From IMG/VR virus record IMGVR_UViG_3300045962_000005, positions 1 to 60,770 of that record: a stretch of 60,770 nucleotides of DNA; one strand, given 5' to 3'. Under the pieces are notes generated by a model that had not been told where the DNA came from, did not search any database, and worked only from the letters and a program-made list of their open reading frames with translations. Position numbers and translations under genes: made by a program. This document shows positions 9,032 through 26,558 of the stretch, in pieces. The stretch comes from a virus. Taxonomy: Duplodnaviria > Caudoviricetes. Within the stretch, counting starts at the first letter, position 1, and each line of letters starts with the position of its first letter.

Positions 9032-9202
9032 CTACGTCACCTTGCTCGTCCTCTCCTGCTCCAACCGCCGTTTTACCAACCCCATCGCCTTACGCCTGTT
9101 AGCCAGACAGTCAACGCAACGAATTTTACGGAACCCCACTTTAACTATCCTGCTCACTGGCTTTTTAGACTGACAGCTAGGACATACCTTAGTCTCTTCC
9201 AT
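9032..9202 (-). CDS. Zn-ribbon hypothetical protein
   Basis: Start moved to ATG 9202 (AGGAG SD). CPSC...CVDC. Confidence 0.55.
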   Translation of the reverse strand: MEETKVCPSCQSKKPVSRIVKVGFRKIRCVDCLANRRKAMGLVKRRLEQERTSKVT

Positions 9203-10570: not shown

Positions 10571-10721
10571 TTTCCCTACCCTTCTGAAATTTAACAAACT
10601 TGTTTATAAGAATTCGCATTAGAGCAGAGGTCGATACTCCCCTGCGTTTGGCAAATTGCTGTAGATAATCATAATCTTTAGGTTCTACATAAAAATTTCT
10701 GCGGTTTAATTTGGTTGACAC
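10551..10721 (-). CDS. Ribbon-helix-helix (Arc/CopG/MetJ-like) DNA-binding protein, 56 aa
   Basis: Not in the ORF track. GTG start with AGGAG SD at 10728-10732. MSTKLNRRNFYVEPKDYDYLQQFAKRRGVSTSALMRILINKFV shows the RHH strand-helix-G-x-S-x-S-helix pattern. Confidence 0.75.
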   Translation of the reverse strand: MSTKLNRRNFYVEPKDYDYLQQFAKRRGVSTSALMRILINKFVKFQKGRENATTAE

Positions 10722-10784: not shown

Positions 10785-10944
10785 GAAAAAATATAAAATG
10801 GTGTCAGTAAAGGGCTAAGACGTCTGTCGAAAAGATGAAACTCCGCTATCAGCGAAGGGTGTATACATCACTATGAAAAGTTACGGTTGCGATGAGGGCG
10901 ATACGCTACTATCACCCATAGGGTGCCGATGGTGCCCATACCCC

Positions 10945-10973
10945 TTGACTGTATGCCTACGTTGTGAGATAAT
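10945..10973 (+). promoter_or_regulatory. Early sigma70-type promoter
   Basis: TTGACT-17 bp-GATAAT with TG extension. Confidence 0.7.
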
Positions 10974-11034
10974 ATGTTTACTGATTAGGACATGGGGTCT
11001 TAATCAGATATTTACTTAACTGAGGGATCAGAAC

Positions 11035-11475
11035 ATGAATATCAGAGAAACGATATTAAAAGAAATCGACCGCAACTGCAATAGAGTTGCGTCTTTAAAT
11101 AACGAAATTAAAGCTTGGACTGTCGTAAATGTAGACGCATACCAAGCGCTCATGGACGAGTTTACGGCTGTTGCCGATGAATTGAAAGCAAGCGGGCTGG
11201 TCACATGGACGTACGTCCACTTGTCTATGACAGGTACACCGACAATAGTCCTATCGGCAGATATAGATAAGTCAAGATTCAATGAAGTGGTGGACGTAGT
11301 AACTGAATTAGACCAGTATAGTGGTCGCTTCTCCAATTCATTCGAGCTGGCAGGGATACCAGTGAGATTCAGAATAGAGGCACCTGTTCCACAAGAGGAC
11401 GTTGATTTCCTTGAATCACTGGGTAAAGTCAAGACAATAACGGAAACACGTAAAGTAATGACCTGTAGTATTTAA
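11035..11475 (+). CDS. Early hypothetical protein
   Basis: 146 aa, GAGGG SD, downstream of a promoter. Confidence 0.7.
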   Translation: MNIRETILKEIDRNCNRVASLNNEIKAWTVVNVDAYQALMDEFTAVADELKASGLVTWTYVHLSMTGTPTIVLSADIDKSRFNEVVDVVTELDQYSGRFSNSFELAGIPVRFRIEAPVPQEDVDFLESLGKVKTITETRKVMTCSI

Positions 11476-11515
11476 TCCCTCAGAGGTGAGGCGCCCCGGC
11501 GCCGAGCCTCGCCCT

Positions 11516-11535
11516 TACTATCATAACTACTATCA
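11516..11535 (+). repeat. TACTATCATAACTACTATCA, copy 1 of 3
   Basis: Exact 20-mer also at 12521 and 12565. Confidence 0.9.
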
Positions 11536-11554
11536 CCGCCGTATGCCATAGGCC

Positions 11555-11582
11555 TTGCAATAGTGTGTGGATGCGGTATAAT
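11555..11582 (+). promoter_or_regulatory. Early sigma70-type promoter
   Basis: TTGCAA-16 bp-TATAAT. Confidence 0.65.
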
Positions 11583-11612
11583 GGGCACATGTCATCGCAC
11601 AAGGCGATGCAC

Positions 11613-11628
11613 TTCTAACCGGTTAGAA
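11613..11628. repeat. 16-bp dyad, copy 1 (TTCTAACCGGTTAGAA)
   Basis: Perfect palindrome, central variant. Confidence 0.9.
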
Positions 11629-11670
11629 CCTGTTAGAGGATATTTATTTATATGTATGGAGATACAGACA

Positions 11671-12453
11671 ATGGAAACATTAAACGACGCAAAACAAAAA
11701 GAGCTGGTAAAATTAATCAAGAGCGTAGATTCAAAGGAAAGTTCAGCAGTGAACGCCGCCGATAAAGTCGCAGATTTTCTGATTACCGAAGTTTACGACG
11801 CAACAAGACCAGCAGTGAAAGAAGCGGATTTTATTATGTCGTTCGCTAAGTCACTCTCAGACGATAACAAGATAGTCTTGAAATACAGTAAAAATGTCTG
11901 GTCAAAGATCAAACATCAAGTCAGTATCGCGGTACTTATTCAGGCAAAGCCAAACGCAGTAGTGGATTTTACCATCAACGAGCGCGGCAAGTCTAAGACT
12001 TTCACCATGACGCCGGAAGAATTAAAAACCGCTGGAGTTAAGCAAAAAGCGGCTGCAGCTGCACAGATAAGAAAAGAACTGGGCACCAGCGACGGCAGAG
12101 CCGGAAACAAAAGAGCGCCCCAAACACCGGCGGCACCAGTAACACCGGATACCATCAAGACACCGGCGGCAACTGAAACAACAAAGAAAACCACCGGCAG
12201 GCGTCAACCTAAAAACTATGAGATGCAAGTTAAAGATGCGCTATTGTTGGTAGGCGACGCCGACGAGTTCATTGACGCGCTCGTAGTGTACAGGGATAAG
12301 ATAAAATCGGCGGCTAATCGTAGAGGATACATAATCACCATAGCTGAAAAGAGCGCTGTCGTAAAGGCCCAGAAGAAAGCACCGGCTAAGAAAACAACCA
12401 CTAGACGAGCACCAAGAAAGCCGGTTGCACCAGCGCCATCAGCAAGCGCGTAG
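11671..12453 (+). CDS. Early protein with basic Lys/Ala/Pro-rich tail (possible DNA-binding)
   Basis: Start moved to ATG 11671 (GGAG SD), 260 aa. C-terminus KKAPAKKTTTRRAPRKP. Confidence 0.7.
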   Translation: METLNDAKQKELVKLIKSVDSKESSAVNAADKVADFLITEVYDATRPAVKEADFIMSFAKSLSDDNKIVLKYSKNVWSKIKHQVSIAVLIQAKPNAVVDFTINERGKSKTFTMTPEELKTAGVKQKAAAAAQIRKELGTSDGRAGNKRAPQTPAAPVTPDTIKTPAATETTKKTTGRRQPKNYEMQVKDALLLVGDADEFIDALVVYRDKIKSAANRRGYIITIAEKSAVVKAQKKAPAKKTTTRRAPRKPVAPAPSASA

Positions 12454-12469
12454 TTCTAACGCGTTAGAA
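12454..12469. repeat. 16-bp dyad, copy 2 (TTCTAACGCGTTAGAA)
   Basis: Immediately after the stop codon; extends to 18 bp with a G..C pair. Confidence 0.95.
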
Positions 12470-12474
12470 CCTCG

Positions 12475-12502
12475 AAGCCTCGCAGAAATGCGAGGCTTTT
12501 TT
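12475..12502 (+). terminator. Rho-independent terminator
   Basis: AAGCCTCGCA-GAAA-TGCGAGGCTT followed by a T-run. Confidence 0.85.
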
Positions 12503-12520
12503 GTGCCTGAAAAAAGGCAC

Positions 12521-12584
12521 TACTATCATAACTACTATCATAGCGCCGTGTGTCACGGCCCCATTACTATCATAACTACTATCA
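12521..12584 (+). repeat. TACTATCATAACTACTATCA, copies 2 and 3
   Basis: Exact 20-mers at 12521-12540 and 12565-12584. Confidence 0.9.
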
Positions 12585-12610
12585 TGCCGCGCCGTGCTGC
12601 GATAGGCAAT

Positions 12611-12626
12611 TTCTAACGCGTTAGAA
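12611..12626. repeat. 16-bp dyad, copy 3
   Basis: Exact TTCTAACGCGTTAGAA. Confidence 0.95.
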
Positions 12627-12660
12627 CCGGCACAGTATGCCGTGCAGTCGTGTGAAAAAT

Positions 12661-13350
12661 GTCCAAAGCGAAAGTTTCGTAATTTAGCTATCTATTTTAG
12701 TATACACAACGTTGTGTGATGTATGCCTCCCTATCTATTTGTACAAGGCTACATAAAAACAGTGGACGCGCGTCCACTAATTATGTATGGCGTCGTGTAA
12801 CTGGACGTATGAAAATGGGGTAAAAGTGGTGTATGTGTATACTCCAGAGTATACTCCAGAGTATACATCATAGCCCTCTATGTATTTGTACATGGCTGTA
12901 TAGAAAAAGTGGGTTTCTGTCCACTAAGGTGGACGCAAGGTGGACGGAAAACGCCGAAATTGTACCGCAAACGCCTTGTGAAATTCCTTTAAAATCAGTG
13001 TTGTGTCACTTTTTGCGTCCACAGCGTCCACATACGCAATGGGATAAGCATATGAAATATATATATATATTAGTAGTAGCGTCCACCGTGGACGCAAAAA
13101 AAAAATCTACAAAGGGTCAAAATTTCAGATCGAGTAAGGAAGATCCCTACTCGTTTTTAAAAAAAAACCCAGCTCTACCCTGAAAATTGCGTCCATCTGT
13201 CCACAAATGCCTCAAAGCCAAGCCCAGCAAGGCCTACAGGCTGGACAGAACTTTTTTATTTGCGTCCACTAGTCTGGACGCTCGTCCACCTTTTTTACAC
13301 AGCCTTGTACAAATACACACAGGGGGAGTATACTACAGAGTATACACACC
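12661..13350. other. Putative replication origin (iteron-like repeat region)
   Basis: 17 GTCCA/TGGAC pentamers (12 full GTCCAC/GTGGAC) on both strands, (AT)n core near 13058-13070, A-tracts and long imperfect inverted flanks. Confidence 0.6.
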
Positions 13351-13369
13351 TAGACTCTCTCATCCTAGC

Positions 13370-13397
13370 TTGACATAGTGTTTAAAGAGCGTATAAT
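13370..13397 (+). promoter_or_regulatory. Early sigma70 promoter with consensus boxes
   Basis: TTGACA-16 bp-TATAAT. Confidence 0.8.
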
Positions 13398-13495
13398 GGT
13401 AAGTGAGATGTGGGAGATTGCATTCACTGAAGGACAAAATCTCATTTCTTAAATGTGCGTATTTATTACATGCCTATTTATATGCACGCTTATAG

Positions 13496-13511
13496 TTCTA
13501 ACGCGTTAGAA
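13496..13511. repeat. 16-bp dyad, copy 4
   Basis: Exact copy, in the leader of the gene at 13541. Confidence 0.95.
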
Positions 13512-13540
13512 ATTAACTTAACCTTAACAGGATATTTATT

Positions 13541-14014
13541 ATGGAACAACTACCCATAGACGAAAGGCCCAAGTACCTGTCAATAGCACTGACCACTGGG
13601 CAGAATAATTTTTTGCATACAGTCAATGCGAACTCGTTTACTTTCCTGAAGCACAGAGGGGTAACCTTTGCGTTGACAGAACGTAACTATTATTTCGACA
13701 CCAATAACAGCAAGCCACGCTACACCACCATGAAAACAACCAACTGTAGCTGGGATAAGAATTATGCTATCTATATACTAGTGCCTGAATACGACGTGTT
13801 TATACACGTGTCTACTGTATCAGTAGACAATGAGACAGAATACGAGCAGGTAACTGAAGCACTGGACGGAGCGCGAATGACTTATGCCAGTACATCTGAG
13901 CGGGCGATAGCGGGATTTATGCAAACTCTGCACTGGCTGGACGGCAGTAAGCCATTCACTAAGCCAAACACAGGCTATGATGTCGTATCACGCGCCAATG
14001 GCGCCAAATATTAA
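13541..14014 (+). CDS. Early hypothetical protein
   Basis: 157 aa, AGGA SD. Confidence 0.7.
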   Translation: MEQLPIDERPKYLSIALTTGQNNFLHTVNANSFTFLKHRGVTFALTERNYYFDTNNSKPRYTTMKTTNCSWDKNYAIYILVPEYDVFIHVSTVSVDNETEYEQVTEALDGARMTYASTSERAIAGFMQTLHWLDGSKPFTKPNTGYDVVSRANGAKY

Positions 14015-14024
14015 GGAGAAAAAA

Positions 14025-14477
14025 ATGAAAGTCATATTAAATAAATGCTACGGCGGGTATACATTATCGCATGATGCCAAAATGGAACTACTGAAAGTTA
14101 AACATACAGGGGCATACCCATATGTATGCTCATCAAACTACGATGGGAAAACAATTACATTGTTAGATATGCCATACAACAGTGAAAATGCAACCTATGG
14201 GCTGGATATTGTATATATGGAAGGGCCAATTGAAGAAACGCCGTGCGTTATGCACGAAGATGATTTTATGCAGGAAGCAAAAACAGCCAATGACATATTT
14301 TCGAGTACCGAAAGAGATGATCCTGATTTAGTTGCCGTAGTAGAAAGGCTGGGCGAACGGGCATCAGGTTCGTGTTCTAAATTGGTTGTCGTGGATATAG
14401 ACGATGATATACAAGACTACGAGATATCAGAGTACGACGGGTTTGAAACACTTCACGAAAAACATCGTAAGTGGTAA
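14025..14477 (+). CDS. Conserved phage hypothetical protein
   Basis: Start moved to ATG 14025 (AAGGAG SD). MKVILNKCYGGY...RDDPDLVAVVERLG...EYDG.E is a common phage early-protein pattern. Confidence 0.75.
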   Translation: MKVILNKCYGGYTLSHDAKMELLKVKHTGAYPYVCSSNYDGKTITLLDMPYNSENATYGLDIVYMEGPIEETPCVMHEDDFMQEAKTANDIFSSTERDDPDLVAVVERLGERASGSCSKLVVVDIDDDIQDYEISEYDGFETLHEKHRKW

Positions 14478-14572
14478 GAGTACTGAGCACGGCTACCAGA
14501 AGGTAAGCCGTAACTGCAATACATTAGTGCTGCTAACACTATGAATTATAAAACTAAACAGAGGACAAAGCA

Positions 14573-14806
14573 ATGCTACAGGAGCAAAATAATAAATTAA
14601 AACGTGCAAAAAGACTTGAGCGTAATAAAATAGAGCGTAGCAAGTCGCACGAAATTAAGAACAAGACGCACGCACGTCGTCCAGAGCAGTTCACTATGTC
14701 AGTGAAGGAATACGACATAGACTATTATGCAGAACATATTGATGCATATACCGATGGTGACGATTGGCGTACCTATATATTATACGCAGACGGGAGAACA
14801 GCCTAA
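14573..14806 (+). CDS. Small protein with basic N-terminus and acidic C-terminus
   Basis: 77 aa, GAGGA SD. Confidence 0.6.
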   Translation: MLQEQNNKLKRAKRLERNKIERSKSHEIKNKTHARRPEQFTMSVKEYDIDYYAEHIDAYTDGDDWRTYILYADGRTA

Positions 14807-14830
14807 TTACGTACGACAAAAGGAACTATT

Positions 14831-14859
14831 TTGACATACGCCTCACGGCGTGAGATAAT
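14831..14859 (+). promoter_or_regulatory. Early sigma70-type promoter
   Basis: TTGACA-17 bp-GATAAT with TG extension. Confidence 0.75.
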
Positions 14860-14899
14860 AGTAGAAATAGGGGCACTCCCCTAAACACTGCGTCGGGTA

Positions 14900-14915
14900 T
14901 TCTAACGCGTTAGAA
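14900..14915. repeat. 16-bp dyad, copy 5
   Basis: Exact copy; extends with an A..T pair; nested inside a CTGCGTCG/CGACGCAG stem. Confidence 0.95.
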
Positions 14916-14965
14916 TCTACACCAACTACTTCGACGCAGATATTTATTAATGACAGGAGAAAATT

Positions 14966-15985
14966 ATGTCACAGACACAACCACAACATACACCACTCGT
15001 ATCATCCACCATGGCGAAGGCTGATACATTGATTACAAGCGCACGGAATACCTTTTACCGGGCGAAGATAACTTTTACGATGCCACCACGCACTAAGAAA
15101 GACCGCAAGGCAGAGGCTGATGCGGAATCTATAAATAATGCCTATGGTGCCATCAAAGCGTCGCGTAACCTGTATGCTGCGCAGTTCATTAAACCGTTCG
15201 AGTCTATTGCCAGTAAGTGGCGTAAGCGTATTGCCTCGTTCGCGGTACTCATCGGTGAAGACCAGTGTATACACAAGGAATACATCATGCAGGTCATGGA
15301 GGAATATCAGGACGAGTGCCTACCGGAGTGGAACCACCAGAAAGTCATATTCGGCAATCACTACGCGGAAATACTCAGGCAGTCACAGCATGAACAGGGT
15401 GATTTGTTCGACCCGACGATTTATCCTGATGTAGCACAGGTAATAGACCAGTTCACTTGCACACTGGACATACGACCACTTGGCACGGTTCAGACAGAAA
15501 TGTTTGACGGGCTGGAAACAGCGATAGCTGATGAGGTAGCAGAGTCCATGAAAGCGACGATTATGCGCGATATAGAGAACTCACTGCGCAAGCCTGTAGA
15601 GACGCTAATGGAGAACCTGATGAACGTGCATCAGAAATTATCCAAGAGTATTAATACGCCGGAAGGGGTTAAGGCAACACCGCTGTACGAATCGTTGATG
15701 CTGAACTTAGAGGATATTGCCAATATGATGCCAGCACTGAACGTTACAAATAGTGCGTTTCTCAATGACATCGCGGCGAAGGCACGCAGGCTGATTGTAC
15801 CGATAGAAACGTTGCGGGTAAGCCAGACCGCTAGGGAGGAAACAGCGGAGAAGGCTGAGGCACTGCTGACTGAACTCAATGTGAATACGGACAATAATAA
15901 AAATGCCAACGACATTAAGGACAGGCGGGAGGCAGCCAAGGCGTCGGCTGAGGCTATACTGGCACAAATGAAGGGAATGTTCTAG
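14966..15985 (+). CDS. DUF3150-like helical protein
   Basis: 339 aa. The KKDRKA...G...ASRNL and LFDPTIYP patterns resemble proteins found next to phage AAA/VWA pairs. Confidence 0.55.
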   Translation: MSQTQPQHTPLVSSTMAKADTLITSARNTFYRAKITFTMPPRTKKDRKAEADAESINNAYGAIKASRNLYAAQFIKPFESIASKWRKRIASFAVLIGEDQCIHKEYIMQVMEEYQDECLPEWNHQKVIFGNHYAEILRQSQHEQGDLFDPTIYPDVAQVIDQFTCTLDIRPLGTVQTEMFDGLETAIADEVAESMKATIMRDIENSLRKPVETLMENLMNVHQKLSKSINTPEGVKATPLYESLMLNLEDIANMMPALNVTNSAFLNDIAAKARRLIVPIETLRVSQTAREETAEKAEALLTELNVNTDNNKNANDIKDRREAAKASAEAILAQMKGMF

Positions 15986-15993
15986 GAAGTTCT

Positions 15994-16021
15994 TTGACAT
16001 TATGCCCATGTGATGTATAAT
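15994..16021 (+). promoter_or_regulatory. Early sigma70 promoter with consensus boxes
   Basis: TTGACA-16 bp-TATAAT. Confidence 0.8.
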
Positions 16022-16129
16022 ATTACATAGATGGGTAACCATTTCCGTTGAGGTGTGAACACGCTCACTCCCCCTTGCCATATTTCTCACAGGTTACCAA
16101 TGCCAGTGGTAACCACTCAACGGCACAAC

Positions 16130-16145
16130 TTCTAACTCGTTAGAA
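16130..16145. repeat. 16-bp dyad, copy 6 (TTCTAACTCGTTAGAA)
   Basis: One central mismatch; extends with a C..G pair. Confidence 0.9.
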
Positions 16146-16174
16146 GATATTTATTAACAGCTCAGGAGGAAACC

Positions 16175-17188
16175 ATGAGTATTAAAATTAGTGCAGTACC
16201 AGATATAATCGTTTCATTGTATAACAATGAGCAAACGCGTCACCGTACCTTATTTTTAAAAGGTGCATCAGGTGTTGGTAAGTCAGACACCGTAAGGCAG
16301 GCTGCTGAAGTATTAGGCGTAGACCTGATTGACTTACGTTTAGCACAGCTTGACCCGACAGATTTAAAAGGGATACCGTATCCGGTGGATGGGGTTACCC
16401 AGTGGGCCGTACCGGGGTTTTTCCCTCAAGACCCTGAGTCTGCAGGGATATTATTCTTGGACGAAATTACGTCCGCACCTCCAGCGATACAGGCAGCTGG
16501 ATACCAGTTGGTTCTTGACCGTGCACTGGGGGATTATCAGTTGCCGGATGGGTGGATGATAATTGCTGCGGGTAACCGTACCTCTGACCGTGGCGTTACG
16601 TATCAAATGGCGGCGCCGTTACAGAACCGCGTGACGGAGCTGGACGTGGAGCATACGCTTGAAGGGATACTGGACTATGGTGCGGGTAATGGACTCGACC
16701 CTCGCGTTATGGCCTTTTTATCTGAACGTGCCGACTTGGTGCATAAATTTGGTAAAGAGGAATACGGCAAGCCGTTCCCTTCTCCGCGTGGTTGGTTCGC
16801 AGTGAGTCCGATACTGGACATGGACCTACCGCAGGCTTATAAACTTGACCTGATTATTGGGTCAGTGGGGCATGAAGCAGGGATAGCGTTCGAGGCGTTC
16901 TTACGGGTATGGGACAAGATGCCGTCCATCAGCAAGATACTGGCGGGTGAACCTGAGCAAGTGCCTACCGATTTAGGTACGTTGGCCTGTGTAACCATGG
17001 GCCTGTCCGCACGGCTCACCGCTAAAGGTATGGATAAGGCATGGGATTATCTCATGAGTATGCCACGGGAGATGTCGTTACTGGCTATTAAGTTAGCGTA
17101 TAAGCGCGACAAGTCATTAGCTCAGGCTAAAATGTTTGGTGAATGGGCGAGAAGTAATAAAGACCTGTTTAAAGAACTATTACAATAG
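16175..17188 (+). CDS. MoxR/dynein-related AAA+ ATPase
   Basis: Walker A GASGVGKS, Walker B LFLDE, AAGN sensor, LQNR arginine finger, SPRGW. Confidence 0.9.
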   Translation: MSIKISAVPDIIVSLYNNEQTRHRTLFLKGASGVGKSDTVRQAAEVLGVDLIDLRLAQLDPTDLKGIPYPVDGVTQWAVPGFFPQDPESAGILFLDEITSAPPAIQAAGYQLVLDRALGDYQLPDGWMIIAAGNRTSDRGVTYQMAAPLQNRVTELDVEHTLEGILDYGAGNGLDPRVMAFLSERADLVHKFGKEEYGKPFPSPRGWFAVSPILDMDLPQAYKLDLIIGSVGHEAGIAFEAFLRVWDKMPSISKILAGEPEQVPTDLGTLACVTMGLSARLTAKGMDKAWDYLMSMPREMSLLAIKLAYKRDKSLAQAKMFGEWARSNKDLFKELLQ

Positions 17189-17197
17189 GGGATTAAC

Positions 17198-18436
17198 ATG
17201 GATTTAGAACAACGACTGAATGACGTAGCCGCGCGTATGGTGCTGGCTGAACCGTTCCTTGCCAGTATCTTTGTGAAACTACCGCGTAAGGTAGTGGATT
17301 GGGGAACAGCAGCAACGAATGGTGAGGTATTTTACTTTTGCGACTCGTTCTGCAGTGACTTAAATGACAGTGAACTGATGTTTATTGCACTGCATGAAAC
17401 GGCGCATGTTGCGCTACAGCACTCTTGGCGCAGAGGTGACAGGGAACCGTCAATATATAATACCGCTTGTGATGCAGTGATTAACCCAGAGATAAAACGG
17501 CTACCGAGAAATTACCAGATGCCGGAGGGCGGTGTATTATTCCCTTGGGTAACTCAGGAGATGTCAGCGGAGGACGTGTACTCTATACTGCGTAAGCAGG
17601 CGAGTGAACAACCGGACTATCCGCAGTCTGGCAGTGGTCAGGGTAATGAAGGTGAACAATCGGGTCAGGGAGGTGCGTCGCGTCGGAAATCCCCGGCACA
17701 ACAGGGAGACGACGCAGACGGTGGGAAATCACCGGAAGAGCAGGCTGCTAATACTGGTGGTGGGGGTTGGGATGGTCAGGGTGACCTGATGGACTCTACG
17801 TCACCGGAGGCACAGGCTGATATAGAGGCAACGATTATTGCTAATGCCCGTATGTTTAAAGCAGCAGGTTCGAGTTCGGCCTTTGCGGACAGGGTAATTG
17901 ACGGTGCTAATACGCCACAGGTATCTTGGCCTGAACTACTGCGTCAGGTAATGACTTCTACATCTAAGGACGACTATTCTTGGAGGCGGGGCAACCGACG
18001 CTATACGCATCAGGGGTTATATCTTCCTTCATTATATACGGACTCAATGGGCGGGCTGGTGGTAGCCGTGGATACGTCGGGTTCCGTAGGGCAGGACGAG
18101 ATGAATCAGTTTGCTGCTGAAATCAATGCGATATTTGAAGACTGCAGGCCGGATTGGGTGGAGGTGATTTATTGCGATACTAATGTGAAACACCACGAAC
18201 GGTTTAACGAAGGGGATATTGTGGAGCTGCACGCAAAAGGTGGCGGTGGCACACGGTTCAGACCTGTATTTGACTACGTGGAAGAAATGCAGGAGAGAGT
18301 ATCCGCTATGGTTTTCTTCACTGACCTTATGGGTAATGTGCATGAGCTGGAGGAACCGGACTATCCGGTACTGTGGGGTCTGACCTATGGAAGCAAAGAG
18401 GCGCCTTTCGGTGAAACTGTGAGGATAGACGTATGA
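17198..18436 (+). CDS. DUF2201-type metallopeptidase-like plus VWA domain protein
   Basis: TAATNG, HETAH (HExxH), MIDAS DTSGS, GGGGT and FFTD motifs; adjacent to the AAA+ gene. Confidence 0.85.
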   Translation: MDLEQRLNDVAARMVLAEPFLASIFVKLPRKVVDWGTAATNGEVFYFCDSFCSDLNDSELMFIALHETAHVALQHSWRRGDREPSIYNTACDAVINPEIKRLPRNYQMPEGGVLFPWVTQEMSAEDVYSILRKQASEQPDYPQSGSGQGNEGEQSGQGGASRRKSPAQQGDDADGGKSPEEQAANTGGGGWDGQGDLMDSTSPEAQADIEATIIANARMFKAAGSSSAFADRVIDGANTPQVSWPELLRQVMTSTSKDDYSWRRGNRRYTHQGLYLPSLYTDSMGGLVVAVDTSGSVGQDEMNQFAAEINAIFEDCRPDWVEVIYCDTNVKHHERFNEGDIVELHAKGGGGTRFRPVFDYVEEMQERVSAMVFFTDLMGNVHELEEPDYPVLWGLTYGSKEAPFGETVRIDV

Positions 18437-18654
18437 ACTTCAGCGAGTTTTTATATCGCTTGTGGGTAGCTGAGACACTTCACTATTTTGGTGAGGTGTT
18501 ACCGATTAACGAGATAACCGCAGGCACACTAGAGCACCGCGTTGACTATAACGACCCGCCTATTGTTGACGTAGACGGCGATGCAATGCGGACATTTATA
18601 TTAACCTACGACATAGAGAGACTTATTTATGAGCAGAAGAACACATTTAACTGA
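18433..18654 (+). CDS. Hypothetical protein
   Basis: 73 aa, ATGA overlap. Confidence 0.55.
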   Translation: MNFSEFLYRLWVAETLHYFGEVLPINEITAGTLEHRVDYNDPPIVDVDGDAMRTFILTYDIERLIYEQKNTFN

Positions 18655-18919
18655 TGATAAGGGCAAGTTTGACCCGATGGCAGAAGTCTTAAAACGCGTG
18701 CGTCGCATCGAGACGCGAGTGATGAAAGGCTTTGAACAGCTTGGTGCTACTATCACGCACGAAGATGGGCGAATTATCATTGACCATGACAATGAAGTGA
18801 TAACCATCAAAACGATGGGTACAACTGTCGGAGAGATATTAACGGCGCTTGGCAATAACAAGGGCGAGTATTATGTCGTATACAACGACGTGGCACGTTG
18901 CATACTGAAAGTGCAATAA
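18629..18919 (+). CDS. Hypothetical protein
   Basis: 96 aa, in operon. Confidence 0.6.
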   Translation: MSRRTHLTDDKGKFDPMAEVLKRVRRIETRVMKGFEQLGATITHEDGRIIIDHDNEVITIKTMGTTVGEILTALGNNKGEYYVVYNDVARCILKVQ

Positions 18920-18931
18920 GGAGAGAGAATA

Positions 18932-19111
18932 ATGCATATTTTATTTGCGAAACCAAAAGAAATTGTTTTCACTTTAGACGCCTTTAGGGGAGAAGCACTA
19001 TCAAATCTGGTAGAAACATTGGGCCTTTCGGATGAAGACCTTGAAGGTTTAGATGAATTTTATTTAACAGTAACAGCAGTTGAAACTGTGTACCTTGAAA
19101 AAGATGAGTAG
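18932..19111 (+). CDS. Small acidic hypothetical protein (59 aa)
   Basis: Below track cutoff; AAGGAG SD; MHILFAKPKEIVFTLDAF... Confidence 0.55.
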   Translation: MHILFAKPKEIVFTLDAFRGEALSNLVETLGLSDEDLEGLDEFYLTVTAVETVYLEKDE

Positions 19112-19379
19112 TATAGCGCTGCGGAAAGAAACTATAGACTTGCTGAGAAAGGCAATCAGGGAGCTGGGCGAAGATAAAGCGTACAACTTATTCTCCGAGG
19201 CTATGGCGCAGGTTAAATCAGAACGCGTGAAACCGGTTACTGCGGTGCCACTTCTGAGTCCTAATCAGGTTGACCTGTGTAAACGGCTAACATCTAAATA
19301 CGGGTATACGCCGCATGAGTTGTCCAGAAAACTGCAGGTGGATAAACAAACGATAATTAACGTGCTGGAGGGGGCATAA
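19104..19379 (+). CDS. Putative helix-turn-helix protein
   Basis: Start moved to ATG 19104. C-terminal GYTPHELSRKLQVDKQTIINVL is HTH-like. Confidence 0.55.
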   Translation: MSSIALRKETIDLLRKAIRELGEDKAYNLFSEAMAQVKSERVKPVTAVPLLSPNQVDLCKRLTSKYGYTPHELSRKLQVDKQTIINVLEGA

Positions 19380-21217
19380 TGGCAGATATTAATTTTTTTG
19401 CAACGATAGATTTTGAGACGTACTATGACAGGGAATTTTCTCTGTCTAAAATGCAGACCGACGAGTATGTATTAGACTCACGATTTGAAATTATAGGCGT
19501 GGGGTGTAAAGTTGGAAACGGTGAAATAGAGTTTTTCAGCGGTAGCCATCAGGAAGTATGCGATTGGTTAGTGACACGGTTTAACTGGGCCACGACACCA
19601 GTATGTTTTCATAATGCACAGTTCGACGGGTTTATATGCACGCAGATATTAAAACTAAAACCGTATATCATACTGGATACGATATCAATGGCGCGTATGG
19701 TTTATCCTTGGTGGAAATCCTATTCACTGAAAAACGTTTCTAACGCGTTAGAAATTGGCAGCAAGGGTACGGAAGTAGTTACCTTCATGGGGTATCAGCT
19801 ACAGGACTTTACTGAAGATGCATTGCGTCGTTACGGGGAATACTGTAAAAATGACGTAGGGTTAACGCATACAATAGCAGAGATGTTGATACCTAAAATA
19901 CCATTATTAGAAATAATGATGATTGATATGACTGTCCGAATGTTTACCGAGCCGAGGATAAAAGGGGATACGGCTAGGCTAGTGGCCTACCACAACCAAG
20001 AGGTGAGCAGGAAAATAGAACTGGTCAATGCGGCTAATGCCGATAAAGAAGACTTGATGTCTAATGAAAAGTTTGCGGATAAACTGCGCGACTTAGGGAT
20101 TAAACCACCTATGAAGATATCAAAACGTACTGGTAAATGGGCCTTTGCCTTTGCTAAGAATGACCGTCAGTTTACTGACCTGTTAAATTGCGGAGTGCCG
20201 GAAGTGGAAGCGCTTGTATCCGCGCGAATAGGGGTAAAAAGTACAATTTCAGAAACCCGTGCGCTGCGTATGATTCATGCTAGTCACCGAGGTTTACTAC
20301 CCGTACACTTAAACCACTGGGGCGCTAAAACTACAGGCAGGCTATCTGGTGGTAATAAAATGAACTACCAGAATATACCGTCCAGAGGTTTAGGCAAGGA
20401 GCTACGTAAATGCATGGTAGCACCGGAAGGGTATAAGATAGTGGTTGGGGATTCCTCCAACATAGAGCTGCGGGTAGTTATGGCTTGTGCTGGCGATAAG
20501 GAGAGCTTAGCCCTGCTGTATAACGGTGATGATTTATACTGTGACTTTGCCAGTAAGCTGCATGGCAGGGTCATAACTAAGGAGGACAAGAAAGAACGTA
20601 TGCTAGGTAAAGTAGCTATGCTGTCACTTCAATACGGTGCTGGTTCAAGTACGTTCAGGCATATGGTACGAATGATGGCAGGTATAGTTATTGATGAGGA
20701 CGAAGCGCAAAGCATCGTAAACATATATAGAAATATACACCCTGAGATTAGAGACTTATGGGATAGGATGGAGTATATACTACGGGCTGTGCAAAATGGC
20801 GAAGAACTGGTGCCATTGGATAAAAATGCATGGGTTCTGACAACAGAAGATGGTTTCGCTATACCCGGATTACCGGGAGTGTGCTACAATAATTTACGTA
20901 GAGGCAGCGATGGCTCTTGGGAGTACCGGATGGGGGATAATTACGTGCATATTTACGGCGGTAAAGTCGTAGAAAATTTATGCCAACACATAGCTAGGCA
21001 CATTGTAATGTGGCAAACGCTAAGGGTACATAGGAAATATCCAGTTTCTATAAGTGTGCACGATGAGATGGTCTGCGTTGTTCCTGAAGAAGAGGCAGAG
21101 GCATGTAAAGCGTATATGCTTGAATCTCTGCGAAAGGCACCTGTTTGGTGCGAAGGTGAAATACCACTAGAAGGAGAGGTAGCTTATGGCGATAGCTATG
21201 GCGAAGCAAAAATATAG
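19379..21217 (+). CDS. polA: DNA polymerase, family A, with 3'-5' exonuclease domain
   Basis: Exo motifs DFETY, HNAQFD, YCKND; polymerase motifs TTGRLS, DSSNIELR, RMLGKVAMLSLQYG, VHDE. Confidence 0.95.
   Translation: MADINFFATIDFETYYDREFSLSKMQTDEYVLDSRFEIIGVGCKVGNGEIEFFSGSHQEVCDWLVTRFNWATTPVCFHNAQFDGFICTQILKLKPYIILDTISMARMVYPWWKSYSLKNVSNALEIGSKGTEVVTFMGYQLQDFTEDALRRYGEYCKNDVGLTHTIAEMLIPKIPLLEIMMIDMTVRMFTEPRIKGDTARLVAYHNQEVSRKIELVNAANADKEDLMSNEKFADKLRDLGIKPPMKISKRTGKWAFAFAKNDRQFTDLLNCGVPEVEALVSARIGVKSTISETRALRMIHASHRGLLPVHLNHWGAKTTGRLSGGNKMNYQNIPSRGLGKELRKCMVAPEGYKIVVGDSSNIELRVVMACAGDKESLALLYNGDDLYCDFASKLHGRVITKEDKKERMLGKVAMLSLQYGAGSSTFRHMVRMMAGIVIDEDEAQSIVNIYRNIHPEIRDLWDRMEYILRAVQNGEELVPLDKNAWVLTTEDGFAIPGLPGVCYNNLRRGSDGSWEYRMGDNYVHIYGGKVVENLCQHIARHIVMWQTLRVHRKYPVSISVHDEMVCVVPEEEAEACKAYMLESLRKAPVWCEGEIPLEGEVAYGDSYGEAKI
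19738..19753. repeat. 16-bp dyad, copy 7, inside the polymerase gene
   Basis: Exact copy; extends with a T..A pair; overlaps codons V-S-N-A-L-E. Confidence 0.95.
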
Positions 21218-21264
21218 GGAAAAATACGTAGTTACTTCATGCGACATACTAAAAGGAAGATGCT

Positions 21265-21924
21265 ATGCAAAATAAATTTCCGCTCAGTTACAGCAGGTTA
21301 AGCTGTTTTAAACAGTGCCCTGCGAAATTTGAGTACTTGTATATTACTAAGTCAGTGCAGGATGCTGGCAATGAGCATACGCGGTTCGGAGAAAGGGTTC
21401 ATAAATCACTGCAGTCGTATGGTGAAACAGCTGACCCAGCTGAGCTAACTAATGAGACAGTAGACTTTAAAAGGATACTGGACAAAGTACTTGGCTATTC
21501 AGGCAAACACTACTACGAGCATAAAATGGCGATAGATGAAGACTGTATGCCTGTAGATTGGTTCAGTTCTGATGCGTGGTTTCGAGGCATAGCGGACGTA
21601 TTAATAGTAGATGGGGATAGAGCGACATGTATCGATTGGAAAACAGGAAAAAAGAGAGAAGACATGACGCAGCTGATGCTGTTCTCTTGCATGGTTATGT
21701 TTACTTTCCCTCAGATAAATACGGTACAAAGTGCATTCGTCTGGTTAAAATCCGAAGAAACAACGACGTGCACAGTAGACCGTGAAGCAGCTGAAAAGTT
21801 TTGGGTTAGGATGCAGAGTCAGTTTGATAAAGTGCAGGAGGCGGTGGACGTTGGCGTTTTCACTGCTAAGACGAGTGCCTTATGTAACTGGTGCCCTGCA
21901 AATAAAGTGTGTATATACAGATGA
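21265..21924 (+). CDS. PD-(D/E)XK (Cas4/RecB-like) exonuclease
   Basis: LSYS...CP, G..VH, GIAD...IDWKTGK and C-terminal C..C.....C. Confidence 0.85.
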   Translation: MQNKFPLSYSRLSCFKQCPAKFEYLYITKSVQDAGNEHTRFGERVHKSLQSYGETADPAELTNETVDFKRILDKVLGYSGKHYYEHKMAIDEDCMPVDWFSSDAWFRGIADVLIVDGDRATCIDWKTGKKREDMTQLMLFSCMVMFTFPQINTVQSAFVWLKSEETTTCTVDREAAEKFWVRMQSQFDKVQEAVDVGVFTAKTSALCNWCPANKVCIYR

Positions 21925-22208
21925 AGAACGAAGGTGACGTTAAGAAAGAGGTTAAAAAAATACTTAACGCCATTGATAACTGCTGGTGGTATATGCCAGT
22001 GCAAACAGGGTATGGGGTAAAAGGCATACCGGATTTTATATGCAGCGTTAGGGGTACGCTAGTAGGCATAGAAACGAAGTTTGGAAACAACAAAGAATCG
22101 CCTTGGCAAAAACGGCAAGGTGAAGGAATACTAAACTCAGGTGGTATTTATGTAGTTATTAACAATAAAAACATAGGTACGCTAACTGAGATATTAACTA
22201 ATATATAG
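21921..22208 (+). CDS. VRR-NUC nuclease / Holliday junction resolvase-like protein
   Basis: Start moved to ATG 21921. E..VK, GIPDF, IETK and Q motifs. Confidence 0.85.
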   Translation: MKNEGDVKKEVKKILNAIDNCWWYMPVQTGYGVKGIPDFICSVRGTLVGIETKFGNNKESPWQKRQGEGILNSGGIYVVINNKNIGTLTEILTNI

Positions 22209-22218
22209 GAGAAGTAAA

Positions 22219-22938
22219 ATGGCAACAGTTAGAATGACAAAAACGCTAAAGCAAGAAATTTTAAGTGCTATAGACGCTAAGTACAATACGGTTATAGATT
22301 CATATAAACCCAGCAAGGACATTATAGACAGAGCTACGGAACTTGCTCATAAAGCGATAGAGGAAGACGTGGTAAAAGTGAAAGAAATTGAATCAGAGCT
22401 GCAAGGACTTTTAGACAGACATACACGCTACATAAAAGACGTCAGTGCTGACCTTTTTGCAAGTAGAATATTTAATAGGCACTATGGTTATATTCCTGTT
22501 ACGTTGTCGGAAAAAGAAGATACAGTAAACTTACTAAGTTTTAATATGCCTTTAGATAGGTATGAAAAATCTAATAGCTATGTTTATACAACTACTGGTA
22601 TAGGTAATCGTATTCGTTTAGAAGATGAAGACCTAATTAAACTGGTAAAGCCGTTAAGAACTGAAGCTAATAGTATTAATAACGCTAGATACGAAATAAA
22701 ACAGCACATAAGAGAGATTATGATAACGACAACAACACTAAAGCAGTTGTTAGATGTCGTGCCTAAAGTTGTAGAGTTCGTGCCATCGTATGCTATTTCA
22801 GCTAGGAACAGCAAAGAAAAACGCTACGCTCCTAAAAAAGAAAAAGAAACTATCGATGAAACTATGGCTAATAGCCTTAGTAAGTCCTTAGATGAAGTAT
22901 CTACGCACGCTGATGCAATAAAAATACTGGGAGAATAA
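22219..22938 (+). CDS. Nmad5-like phage protein (tentative)
   Basis: N-terminal VRMTK.LK.EI and C-terminal TLKQLL...P...FVP resemble nucleotide-modification-associated domain 5. Confidence 0.45.
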   Translation: MATVRMTKTLKQEILSAIDAKYNTVIDSYKPSKDIIDRATELAHKAIEEDVVKVKEIESELQGLLDRHTRYIKDVSADLFASRIFNRHYGYIPVTLSEKEDTVNLLSFNMPLDRYEKSNSYVYTTTGIGNRIRLEDEDLIKLVKPLRTEANSINNARYEIKQHIREIMITTTTLKQLLDVVPKVVEFVPSYAISARNSKEKRYAPKKEKETIDETMANSLSKSLDEVSTHADAIKILGE

Positions 22939-22939
22939 T

Positions 22940-24484
22940 ATGTTTGTAGTACCTTCAAAACGGAAATTAGTCTTCAGGGCTAACGACCACAACAAGGTAT
23001 CTGCATTACTGCCAACAGCAAAAGCATTCAACTACGATGGCGCTCCTGCCGTCGCGGTTGACCACAGTCAGGATGCAGTACGAATACTTAGGAACATAGG
23101 GTATAGAAATGTACCCTCACCTATCCGATATTACTATGATTGGTCAGGGCTATATAAACCAATGCCGCACCAGATAGACACCGCAGAATTCATGTCGATG
23201 AACAGCCGTGCTCTATGTCTAAACGCACCGGGTACGGGTAAAACGGTTAGTGTGTTGTGGGCTGCCGACCATATGCTGCAGGAGGGCATAATAAAACGGA
23301 TTCTTATTATAGCGCCGTTATCAACACTCAAGCCCGTATGGGGAAATGAGATAATGCGCCACTTTATGCACTTGAATTTTGTTATTGTAACGGGTGACCG
23401 TAAGCGTAAAATGAAACTGGCTAGTGACAAAGACGCAGACGTTGTTATTATAAACCACGATGGTTTTACCACTATGCCAAGTATGTTTTATGACTGCGAC
23501 TTAATCATATACGATGAAGCAACGGCACTAAAAACGCCAACGTCTATACGATATAAAACCATGTTTAAATACATGCGAACGCATAGGCCGAGGCTATGGT
23601 TGTTGACGGGTACACCCATATCGCAGAACCCTACTGATGCGTGGACACTATCTAAGCTGTGTGAGTCACCAAAAGTACCAGCCACTTTTACGCACTTCAA
23701 AGAATTAACGATGCGTAAGGTAAGTCAGTTCAAGTGGATACCAAGGCCAGAAGCGCTGAGCATCTGTAAGGAGGTAATGCAGCCGTCTATACGTTTTTCT
23801 TTAGACGAGTGTAAAGACCTACCTGACACGGTGTACGTTGACAGAGGGTGTGAACTAACGAAGATGCAGAGTGTTGCATTTGACGAGATGCTGGAGAAAG
23901 CAGTTGTCGCGGGTACAGATATTGAAGCGGCGAACGCGGCAGTACTTTTCTCTAAGCTAGTACAAATTAGTTGTGGCGTTGCGTACGATACGGACGGTGA
24001 CAGGGTTCATTTTGACGATGCCGGAAGGGTGGATGCACTAACTGAAATCATCGATGAAATTGGTGATAAGGTCATTATTTTTGTGCCGTTAAGAGGTGTT
24101 CAGGATAGGCTGGAGACGCTGCTGGGTAAGCATTACGACGTTGCGTCAGTACATGGCGGCGTGAGCAAGAATGAGCGCAACAAGATATTTGACATATTCC
24201 AGAATAGTGATAAAATAAAGGTATTAATAGCGCACCCTAAAGTTGCAGCACACGGGCTAACATTAACCCGTTCACGTTGCATCATCTGGTATGCTCCGAT
24301 ATATAGCCTAGAACAATACGAGCAGGCAAACGCACGTATACGCAGGTTAAACACTCAGGGCAGAACAGTTATTTACCATATATACGCTACTAAATTTGAG
24401 AAGACACTGTACGGACGTTTAAAGAATAAGCAAAAGATTCTGAACGACTTCCTTGCGTTAGTGCGTGGAACAAATGAGGACTGA
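22940..24484 (+). CDS. SNF2-family helicase
   Basis: APGTGKT, YDEA, LTGTP, HGLTL and QANARIRR motifs. Confidence 0.9.
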   Translation: MFVVPSKRKLVFRANDHNKVSALLPTAKAFNYDGAPAVAVDHSQDAVRILRNIGYRNVPSPIRYYYDWSGLYKPMPHQIDTAEFMSMNSRALCLNAPGTGKTVSVLWAADHMLQEGIIKRILIIAPLSTLKPVWGNEIMRHFMHLNFVIVTGDRKRKMKLASDKDADVVIINHDGFTTMPSMFYDCDLIIYDEATALKTPTSIRYKTMFKYMRTHRPRLWLLTGTPISQNPTDAWTLSKLCESPKVPATFTHFKELTMRKVSQFKWIPRPEALSICKEVMQPSIRFSLDECKDLPDTVYVDRGCELTKMQSVAFDEMLEKAVVAGTDIEAANAAVLFSKLVQISCGVAYDTDGDRVHFDDAGRVDALTEIIDEIGDKVIIFVPLRGVQDRLETLLGKHYDVASVHGGVSKNERNKIFDIFQNSDKIKVLIAHPKVAAHGLTLTRSRCIIWYAPIYSLEQYEQANARIRRLNTQGRTVIYHIYATKFEKTLYGRLKNKQKILNDFLALVRGTNED

Positions 24485-24485
24485 C

Positions 24486-24501
24486 TTCTAACGCGTTAGA
24501 A
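24486..24501. repeat. 16-bp dyad, copy 8
   Basis: Exact copy, 1 nt after the helicase stop; extends with a C..G pair; followed by ATATTTATT. Confidence 0.95.
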
Positions 24502-24530
24502 GATATTTATTTACAACAAAGGAGAACATT

Positions 24531-24932
24531 ATGGACTTAGAAAGAGCCATTAAAGAGTATTTGAATTGCCGTAAGCAAATAGAAACTATTGATGCAGAGG
24601 CTAGGAAACAGAAAGCTGGTGTACGTATCATCATGGGTAAGCTTGAGCAGTGGATAACTAACACAGCTAAAGAACAAGGGCTTAAAGATATCCCAACAGA
24701 AGCAGGAACAGGATACTGGAGTACACATAAAAAATGCAGTGTTGCAGACCAAGAAGTTTTCTTTAAGTATGTAAAAGAAAATGAGCGGTGGGATTTAATA
24801 GAGAAGCGTGCGTCTAAGGTTGCCGTTGGCAATCAGATAGAAGCGACGGGTGAAGCTGTGCCGGGGGTTAACTTTTCTCAGGTTAGCGTTTTTACTGTAC
24901 GTGCTAACAACAAAGATAAGGAGGCCGCATGA
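24531..24932 (+). CDS. Conserved phage hypothetical protein (coiled-coil N-terminus)
   Basis: 133 aa, AAGGAG SD. Confidence 0.7.
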   Translation: MDLERAIKEYLNCRKQIETIDAEARKQKAGVRIIMGKLEQWITNTAKEQGLKDIPTEAGTGYWSTHKKCSVADQEVFFKYVKENERWDLIEKRASKVAVGNQIEATGEAVPGVNFSQVSVFTVRANNKDKEAA

Positions 24933-26451: not shown

Positions 26452-26498
26452 TAGTATTAGGATAAGTATGGTTTTTTAGGGCTGGCACTCTAAATACG

Positions 26499-26530
26499 GG
26501 GCACTGGTTTACCCAAATCGGTGTCCTTTT
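26499..26530 (+). terminator. Putative rho-independent terminator
   Basis: GGGCACTGGTTT-ACCC-AAATCGGTGTCC followed by TTTT. Confidence 0.6.
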
Positions 26531-26558
26531 GTATTTATAAATTGGGCGTAAAAAGGAG

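Follow-up and report, generated by a model that had tools for sequence, protein, structure and literature searches.

A perfect palindrome and an A/U-rich leader tract in the early region of a podophage-like genome, with variant counterparts in related phages

The window analyzed here is the whole of IMG/VR virus record IMGVR_UViG_3300045962_000005, a stretch of 60,770 bases with a CheckV completeness of 100%. We describe two short repeats of its early region, the motif GATATTTAYT and the perfect 16-bp palindrome (dyad) TTCTAAC-NN-GTTAGAA, together with their counterparts in related phages. Scans of the window with PHROG and Pfam detected a podophage-like structural module on the - strand, which includes the large terminase, the portal, the major head protein and a fibre-tail adaptor of the Ralstonia podophage GP4 type. 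According to the same scans, the + strand block at 10.9-29.4 kb encodes unknown early genes, a DUF3150-like protein, a MoxR-like ATPase, a VWA/metallopeptidase protein, a DNA polymerase, an exonuclease, an SNF2 helicase and a primase-helicase. Three of these genes serve as landmarks below.

From ATG 14966, + strand: DUF3150-like gene, product of 339 amino acids
From ATG 16175, + strand: gene of the MoxR-like ATPase
19379-21217: open reading frame (ORF) of the DNA polymerase

The motif has six exact matches in the window, at the positions named in a preliminary description of this DNA. All six are on the + strand and none on the - strand; 0.62 matches are expected, and none of 100 shuffled sequences reached six. 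Every copy is located on the coding strand, in the 5' leader or intergenic gap of a + strand gene, with the following surroundings (distances in nucleotides, nt; SD, Shine-Dalgarno sequence).

11007..11016, + strand: motif copy 1, GATATTTACT; 18 nt 5' of ATG 11035, directly after the hairpin 10981-11007; no palindrome
11639..11648, + strand: motif copy 2, GATATTTATT; 22 nt 5' of ATG 11671; its G closes the stem 11612-11639
13531..13540, + strand: motif copy 3; 0 nt to ATG 13541; the sole SD-like sequence is an AGGA that overlaps the motif start
14939..14948, + strand: motif copy 4; 17 nt 5' of ATG 14966 (DUF3150-like gene); its G closes the outer stem (14888-14939) around a dyad
16146..16155, + strand: motif copy 5; 19 nt 5' of ATG 16175 (MoxR-like ATPase); abuts the dyad 16130-16145
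24502..24511, + strand: motif copy 6; 19 nt 5' of ATG 24531; abuts the dyad 24486-24501

These distances agree with the earlier statement that the motif ends 17-22 nt before an ATG in five cases. An SD starts 5-9 nt after the motif end in five of the six copies. All ten + strand genes of the window that have an upstream gap of at least 30 nt show 64-82% A+T and 5-18% G at positions -34 to -13. The copies at 16146 and 24502 have about 34 nt in common (ACTTCTAACNCGTTAGAAGATATTTATTWACARC); those at 11007, 11639, 13531 and 14939 have only the motif in common with one another and with these two.

The stems 5' of the motif are of three unrelated kinds, non-homologous and of unequal length, and all of them end exactly at the motif G. 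The stem at 10981-11007 has 11 bp with the arms CTGATTAGGAC/GTCTTAATCAG and is unrelated to the palindrome. The stem at 14888-14939, with the arms CTGCGTCG/CGACGCAG, encloses the dyad at 14900-14915, and in the stem at 11612-11639 the left dyad arm is paired with a second GTTAGAG. Because the stems at this G are of three unrelated kinds, the structure appears to be kept while the sequence changes. The two stems reported previously, at 10981 and 14888, are present as described, and the stem types do differ in sequence.

Each of the six leaders was folded by partition function, over the stretch that begins at the presumed start of transcription and ends 45 nt beyond the motif. In these predictions the motif G is paired with a probability of at least 0.97 in five leaders and of 0.67 in the sixth, in line with the earlier view that it closes a stem. 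Motif positions 2-10 are predicted to be unpaired with probabilities of 0.44-0.94 (mean about 0.7), compared with 0.46-0.54 for the whole leaders. Four of the six folds are better than those of shuffled sequences (z of -5.1, -3.8, -4.0 and -3.2); the leaders at 13404-13550 (z -1.2) and 24440-24540 (z +0.3) fold no better than shuffles. A search of Rfam gave nothing at the motif or dyad sites; its five rows were all under the gathering scores and elsewhere in the window. At 26498-26540 we also observed a hairpin with a 13-bp stem, followed by TTTTGTATTTATAA and then by the SD and GTG start of the primase-helicase. Here, too, a stem is followed by an AU tract, of another sequence; downstream of a sigma70-like match at 26429, the element has the appearance of a genuine intrinsic terminator.

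The palindrome occurs in eight copies, all of them perfect and all within 11,613-24,501, compared with 0.42 expected. The copies have no strand and are located as follows.

11613..11628: palindrome TTCTAACCGGTTAGAA; in the leader 3' of promoter 11555, 10 nt 5' of motif copy 2
12454..12469: palindrome TTCTAACGCGTTAGAA; follows the TAG stop codon of gene 11671-12453 directly and precedes an intrinsic-terminator-like hairpin; no adjacent motif
12611..12626: palindrome; 3' of the terminator and of ACTACTATCA repeats; no motif or gene start adjoining
13496..13511: palindrome; 19 nt 5' of motif copy 3
14900..14915: palindrome; 23 nt 5' of motif copy 4, nested in the stem 14888-14939
16130..16145: palindrome TTCTAACTCGTTAGAA; abuts motif copy 5
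19738..19753: palindrome; inside the DNA polymerase ORF; no adjacent motif
24486..24501: palindrome; abuts motif copy 6 and starts 2 nt after the helicase stop codon

A palindrome thus precedes five of the six motif copies, at distances of 0-23 nt (0, 0, 10, 19 and 23 nt). Since three palindromes have no motif and the motif at 11007 has no palindrome, the two are separable modules. There is no promoter match between the terminator of gene 11671-12453 and the palindrome at 12611. The preliminary description had mentioned dyad-derived stem arms at 11612, 16129 and 24485; these arms exist, but their identity as copies of one perfect 16-bp palindrome was missed. The palindrome, not the 10-mer, is the most strongly conserved element of these leaders and the dominant, more interesting one. 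A search of IMG/VR with the combined dyad and motif pattern gave no hits, and the exact window dyad gave only five single-copy hits, which we read as chance.

Strong sigma70-like matches are found upstream of five of the motif copies and an 11/12 match upstream of the sixth.

10945..10973, + strand: sigma70-like promoter TTGACT-17-GATAAT
11555..11582, + strand: sigma70-like promoter TTGCAA-16-TATAAT
13370..13397, + strand: sigma70-like promoter TTGACA-16-TATAAT (12/12)
14831..14859, + strand: sigma70-like promoter TTGACA-17-GATAAT
15994..16021, + strand: sigma70-like promoter TTGACA-16-TATAAT (12/12)
24189..24216, + strand: sigma70-like match TTGACA-16-TAAAAT (11/12), inside the helicase ORF, 286 nt 5' of motif copy 6

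The promoter scan as a whole was not enriched (44 matches compared with 39.6 expected from shuffles), and therefore only the best matches carry weight. These support the earlier observation that the motif precedes the first gene of five early promoters. The accompanying remark that the copy at 24502 has no visible promoter is doubtful because of the 11/12 match at 24189 in the helicase ORF. Dyads are located downstream of four of the five strong promoters. Another set of repeats, ACTA(C)TATCA(TA)ACTACTATCA, was observed 5' of sigma70-like early promoters in the window (11516-11535, 12519-12540, 12565-12584 and, in part, at about 10887) and in two relatives, at about 660 in locus L058 and at about 1340 and 2240 in locus L060. 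As ACTACTATCA is also upstream of a dyad plus promoter in distant relatives, it represents a second clade-conserved control element.

Comparison of the window regions 10800-17200 and 16175-21217 with phage DNA (megablast, blastn) gave no matches, and among 5.8 billion proteins the closest ATPase homologue has 59% identity. Relatives were collected with a profile of ATPase homologues. The IMG/VR search confirmed 229 of 264 candidate stretches and the metagenome search at least 485 of 601; the best 80 loci of each were used, with 6 kb on either side. Many of these loci are on contigs of about 59-61 kb, and the relatives of the window have about 50% protein identity. A perfect 7-2-7 palindrome occurs 2-10 times per early region in 42 of 50 non-redundant IMG/VR loci, in six sequence types. 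TAATCCC..GGGATTA is present in 36 of the 42 loci and TATTCCC..GGGAATA in two; TATTTTC..GAAAATA, TAATTTT..AAAATTA, GGCTAAC..GTTAGCC and TGGTAAC..GTTACCA were found in one locus each. Among the other eight loci, two have different dyads, GCTCCC..GGGAGC in four copies and ACGACA...TGTCGT in eight. The loci nearest to the window, with an ATPase 55-57% identical, have TACTAAC..GTTAGTA or GACTAAC..GTTAGT, and locus L093 has the half-sites of the window with a 1-nt centre.

The confinement to one part of the genome is also seen in whole records. In five of these all 42 TAATCCC-type copies are within one stretch of about 8-15 kb, and the reversed pattern, used as a control, gave none. A terminally repeated genome among them has its dyads at the left end and one near the right end. 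The cultured Rhizobium phage RHph_TM3_14A is syntenic, with a major capsid protein 50% identical, and has 28 copies of TTACC-N5/6-GGTAA (six with N5, 22 with N6) in 49.9 kb, many of which fall within ORFs and in the late region. No repeated dyad was found in the 41.5 kb of Pseudomonas phage Rollin, the helicase of which is 40% identical.

The anatomy of the palindrome was analyzed in 231 distinct copies from the 42 loci plus the window region. The dyads are commonly located between a stop codon and the next SD: 183 of the 231 have an SD and the start of an ORF of at least 40 codons within 120 nt on the 3' side, mostly 10-45 nt off, and in 97 the dyad itself contributes the TAA that ends an upstream ORF of at least 60 codons. 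Some stand between SD and ATG, shortly behind the ATG or far inside conserved genes, and in L058 and L060 dyads are upstream of -35 boxes. Across 161 loci plus the window we counted 440 perfect copies and 59 with one mismatch; the single case with two mismatches was not compensatory. The centre of the TAATCCC type is AT in 78 copies, AC in 74, GT in 37 and GC in two, so that 191 of 194 are RY and three are not. Pairing ends at 16 bp, as the first flanking position pairs in only 57 of 251 cases. The predicted RNA hairpins of the 16-mers are weak: that of the window has -1.7 kcal/mol, four other types have between -3.8 and -5.5, and both A/T-only types give 0.0.

The interval between palindrome and SD in the relatives, represented by 188 distinct spacers, has two arrangements. 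In one there is nothing between them, and the dyad is followed by aGGAG, six or seven bases and the ATG. In the other a G-poor tract, ACTTGTTTACTTA, occupies the interval, with one to three tandem ACTT(G/A)TT(T/C)ACTTA units ending at the SD. The latter tract is found in primary leaders 3' of sigma70-like promoters as well as between cistrons, and has the core TTTAYTTA in common with GATATTTAYTTA of the window. The nearest relatives do not have the exact 10-mer; they have the AT-rich variants GATATATACTTAAC (L095), ATATATTTTAA (L093) and AATTAATTAATTTAT (L161). The L095 variant precedes the orthologous ATPase gene and is close to GATATTTACTTAAC of the window. In seven other loci (L013, L028, L042, L051, L054, L020 and L021) the leaders before the ATPase gene have small G+C-rich hairpins between the dyad and a CU-rich tract, with a conserved loop, e.g. 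CCGCAG-CGGTT-CTGCGG and GCCGATG-CGGTT-CATCGGC.

Both repeats are real and non-random, and their location, conservation and turnover of sequence in the relatives are matters of observation; the RNA structures are predictions. We tentatively read the leaders as two modules, with the AU tract as a ribosome-recruiting RNA leader and the palindrome as the site of a dimeric DNA-binding protein, a reading that we hold with somewhat less than even confidence. We infer the recruitment of ribosomes or protein S1, the binding of a protein and any regulatory outcome from sequence and from modelled structures. The first module, GATATTTAYT(WA), would be an A/U-rich and G-poor run of the early mRNA that is kept single-stranded just 5' of the SD by a stem ending at its first G; this stem would shield it from the variable upstream RNA. 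Most likely the tract is a ribosome landing or standby site of the class of A/U-rich, S1-type enhancers. Among the relatives the A/U-rich, G-poor run before the SD is kept and its exact sequence is not, and this therefore fits a standby site or S1-type enhancer better than a dedicated regulator site or a promoter. The RNA-level signal proposed in the preliminary description finds partial support in the AU tract, given its position, the stems that end at the G, the predicted single-strandedness and the match to RN↓WUU discussed below. It leaves out the palindrome, which also occurs without the motif and has lineage-specific counterparts. The dedicated phage RNA-binding regulator that was suggested there does not agree with the lack of the exact 10-mer in the nearest relatives, for which a compositional AU- or CU-rich leader is the better explanation.

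The second module, the palindrome, would be this phage's version of a clade-wide, lineage-specific palindrome at early gene boundaries. Its invariance, the weak hairpins, the lack of pairing in the flanks and the varied placement argue that the sequence itself is recognized by a two-fold symmetric factor, most simply a dimer on double-stranded DNA. Of the features that an operator of such a dimer would have, symmetry and invariant half-sites are found; the spacing is fixed within each 7-2-7 clade genome examined, but L093 has a different one and in the Rhizobium phage it is not constant. Such a dimeric protein, most likely specified by the phage, would control the early region and could, for example, block or modulate the host RNA polymerase.

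Several observations weigh against this two-module reading. The scans of Pfam, folds and regular expressions in the window and its relatives did not identify a protein that binds the dyad. The 10-mer is identical in five of its six copies, which is more than a purely compositional enhancer needs. The placement of the dyads at stop codons (97 of 231) and, in many cases, directly at an SD would also suit an intercistronic signal at the RNA level. Variation in half-site spacing, with 1 nt in L093 and N5 or N6 in RHph_TM3_14A, is less easily tolerated by a rigid DNA-bound dimer than by a hairpin. Furthermore, a purely symmetric DNA site predicts no strand bias, and two biases were found: the centre AC exceeds GT by 74 to 37, and the one-mismatch variants are asymmetric, with 13 independent groups that keep a wobble pair only on the gene-antisense strand and two that do so on the sense strand. 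Depletion of G on the coding strand could cause both, and the wobble test does not separate the two causes. The pentamer AUAUU, finally, fits another explanation of the tract equally well.

This other explanation, to which we give a small but appreciable chance, is that host RNase E cleaves AU↓AUU in the unpaired RNA immediately 3' of the stem, either removing the structured leader or separating cistrons and leaving an upstream fragment that ends in a hairpin. The early region of T7 has RNase III sites between its cistrons, and the intercistronic placement of the motif is similar. As in the RNase E sites described in the available passages of PMC5222698, the segment is AU-rich and predicted to be single-stranded beside a stem, and AUAUU in all six copies corresponds to the core RN↓WUU with U at +2. 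However, the tract of the distant relatives, CUUGUUUACUUA, has by inspection no match to this core, and the fit is weak because such sites are common in any AU-rich RNA. It is also improbable, if somewhat less so than the proposals that follow in the next paragraph, that the palindrome acts as RNA or single-stranded DNA, with a factor that reads the weak hairpin and the AU tract as the adjoining single-stranded part of its site. The factor could then be a translational operator protein, a hairpin-specific endoribonuclease, an antiterminator like lambda N at nut, or a polymerase that reads template-strand hairpins. The position of most dyads between stop and SD, the varying half-site spacing, the mismatch asymmetry, the dyads 3' of four strong promoters and a basic ORF at 14573-14806 in the window speak for such a factor. 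On the other hand, hairpins of 0 to about -5 kcal/mol make poor structures by themselves, and for the two A/T-only types there is no fold at all. Both arms are invariant, the one two-mismatch case is not compensatory and the commonest variant breaks the pairing in the mRNA sense; copies also occur after a terminator, 5' of -35 boxes and deep in ORFs, and no RNA polymerase domain was detected in the 2266-amino-acid virion protein described below.

Three further explanations concern the 10-mer or its stem and seem less probable still. The exact 10-mer may be functionless and may have spread with a cassette of dyad plus leader by duplication or gene conversion, so that only AT-richness matters; we consider this a slim chance. 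The approximately 34 nt shared by the copies at 16146 and 24502 and the lack of the 10-mer in the nearest relatives agree with such a spread, but the other four copies share only the motif, and L095 keeps GATATATACTTAAC before the ATPase ortholog. It would be more surprising if GATATT were a -10 hexamer or a phage-specific promoter that produces short-leader transcripts, perhaps activated by the dyad. GATATT does match TATAAT at four of six positions, including A2 and T6, the motif is limited to one temporal gene class, and tandem early and middle promoters are known from T4. Yet a match of the promoter scan overlaps the motif at only one of the six copies (13513-13542, 9/12), and there is no consistent -35. 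The dyad-motif distances of 0, 0, 10, 19 and 23 nt provide no fixed activator geometry, and at 13531 a transcription start about 7 nt downstream would fall past the ATG. The tract of the relatives has no TAnnnT hexamer and occurs in one to three variable tandem copies, and PHROG and Pfam revealed neither a phage RNA polymerase nor a sigma factor. Least probable of all is an attenuator, in which stem and U-rich tract form a weak intrinsic terminator between promoter and first gene. The terminator scan does list the stem 10981-11007 followed by ATATTTACTT, but it lists only this one of the six copies; the remaining stems either consist largely of A and U or enclose 36 nt, the tract begins with AUA and not with UUU, and in the relatives it is often 5-35 nt from the nearest stem.

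We also searched for the protein that could bind the dyad. Pfam scans of 31 window ORFs and of 65 of the 134 early ORFs of seven relatives gave no usable DNA-binding domain, with one sub-threshold helix-turn-helix (in L047). A helix-turn-helix protein of L018 was rejected as a binder since it recurs only in L088, and the 339-amino-acid protein was rejected since it is DUF3150-like. A clade-conserved family of 96 amino acids was modelled with a pLDDT of 79 and gave no fold match in PDB at E≤0.001. A scan with regular expressions for RHH proteins found only that of the window itself.

10551-10721, - strand: CopG/RHH ORF of 56 amino acids; RHH_1 score of 21.7 bits (cutoff 20.5); SD and GTG start; divergent from the early genes

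This ORF is the only recognizable DNA binder near the early control region, and nothing ties it to the dyad. Repeats of TGATGTATAC are located just 5' of it, beside its promoter, one of them in an 8-5-8 inverted repeat over a -10-like TATACT; these look like the ORF's own operator. A neighbouring - strand gene at 10067-10597 encodes a protein of 176 amino acids with no family hit, which is found in the same divergent position beside the early region in L065, L135, L075, L060 and L011. The + strand ORF at 14573-14806 (77 amino acids) has a Lys/Arg-rich N-terminus, with 11 K/R in 25 residues, which calls to mind arginine-rich RNA-binding peptides; no homologue turned up in the loci of the relatives. 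The virion protein of 2266 amino acids (29757-36560, - strand) matches only positions 206-642, in the N-terminal part, of the 3406-position PHROG of the N4 virion RNA polymerase, and has neither a polymerase hit in Pfam nor a sequence hit in PDB. The Rhizobium phage has a 6.9-kb gene that is syntenic to the gene of this protein. The idea of a virion RNA polymerase found no support in these scans, as no polymerase domain was detected.

Elements of similar design are known from mycobacteriophages. The start-associated sequences (SAS) of Cluster K are, like the motif of the window, short, asymmetric and of one orientation, and stand just 5' of the starts of non-structural genes only. According to the available passages of PMC3203893, about half of them have inverted repeats (the extended form, ESAS) immediately 5', the consensus of which varies by sub-lineage; the upstream stop codon is sometimes inside the element, and the authors favour DNA-binding proteins for these repeats. 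As of 2025 a role of SAS/ESAS 'requires further experimental verification', as a passage of PMC12699233 puts it. The SAS consensus in those passages, GGGATAGGAGCCC, includes the SD and is 3-7 bp from the start, whereas the window motif is A/T-only but for one G and located 5-9 nt 5' of the SD. The ESAS are given there as imperfect 17-bp repeats with variable spacers, in contrast to the perfect 7-2-7 palindrome found here, and lineage, host group and sequences are unrelated. The Cluster O repeat of 17 bp (TGTTCGGNNNCCGAACA, TGTTCGG-N3-CCGAACA), as presented in the available part of PMC4351075, has about 34 copies over the whole genome and no meaningful orientation; the authors suggest sites of dimeric regulators, and its function is unexplained. 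It resembles the palindrome of the window in its invariant 7-bp arms, variable centre and many copies, mostly in short gaps or at 5' gene ends with some deep in ORFs. It is 7-3-7 and genome-wide, and that part of the paper describes no series of lineage variants and no AU tract; here the palindrome is 7-2-7, with 2-10 copies confined to the early region. The elements of the window are thus an analogue, not a member, of SAS/ESAS and of the Cluster O repeat.

Other systems resemble single modules. A/U-rich S1-dependent enhancers and unstructured standby tails are, in the available passages of PMC2176067 and PMC5934652, established classes; they have in common with the window the A/U-rich, predicted-unstructured run directly 5' of the SD, which applies to five of the six copies. 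They are presented there as compositional, whereas here the 10-mer is exact in five of six copies and always follows a stem. Turning to the palindrome, its copies recall the stoperators. In L5 and Cluster A phages these are multi-copy short sites in gaps or over start and stop codons, at which the L5 repressor halts elongating RNA polymerase; they are 13 bp long, asymmetric and orientation-dependent, and belong to temperate phages. In contrast, the site in the window is palindromic, no repressor or integrase was seen in the sequence, and binding is only a candidate property. The hairpin promoter of the N4 type, used by a virion RNA polymerase, has a stem of 5-7 bp and a 3-nt loop on the template strand; the dyad centre here has 2 nt, and the strand asymmetry of the variants would fit a hairpin on the template strand. 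A lambda nut site consists of boxA and then the boxB hairpin, bound by N protein, whereas here the hairpin comes before the AU tract and an early region has as many as 10 copies. A full-text literature search for five dyad and tract sequences found no paper; the repeats of the Rhizobium phage were outside this search.

Some further features of the genome should be mentioned. The segment 12640-13360 is repeat-rich and seemingly non-coding; GTGGACG/CGTCCAC occurs there many times, in either orientation, alongside blocks of TTGTACA, direct repeats of AGAGTATAC and runs of A. Situated between two early transcription units, the segment has the look of an origin of replication or an iteron field, and the ORFs at 12833-13183 and 13187-13378 are probably spurious. 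A thymidylate-synthase-like gene (9189-10070, - strand) and a protein with an Nmad5 (nucleotide modification associated) domain (22219-22938, + strand) are both present in the window, and together they hint at modified thymidine in the phage DNA. A search for sequencing runs with a stretch of the window listed one DNA run that contains the stretch, perhaps that of the source sample, and no RNA run.

The finding is a variant form of a kind of regulatory repeat that is already known from phages, though not yet explained. Multi-copy palindromes and start-associated motifs of mycobacteriophages have been known since 2011-2015 and are still unexplained; the same design is now seen in an unrelated clade. 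The half-sites over this clade are TAATCCC, TATTCCC, TATTTTC, TAATTTT, GGCTAAC, TACTAAC, TTCTAAC and TGGTAAC, with GTTACC in the cultured Rhizobium phage. It is possible, although we regard it as doubtful, that this podophage-like and almost wholly uncultured clade with genomes of about 60 kb marks its early gene boundaries with a palindrome that switches sequence between lineages, as the footprint of a co-evolving phage factor on every early cistron. The factor could act in the manner of a stoperator system, as a global switch in a virulent phage, or a hairpin signal specific to one strand could be involved; the AU or CU tract would then serve each cassette as its translation module. The question can be tested in this clade, which has hundreds of environmental members, a naturally occurring set of switches in specificity and a cultured syntenic member, RHph_TM3_14A. 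If the AU tract is only a landing pad for ribosomes, that part of the finding is an ordinary one. If it is true that one factor gates every early cistron, this would be a compact means of early-gene timing for a lytic phage and would provide a ready set of orthogonal operator/regulator pairs.

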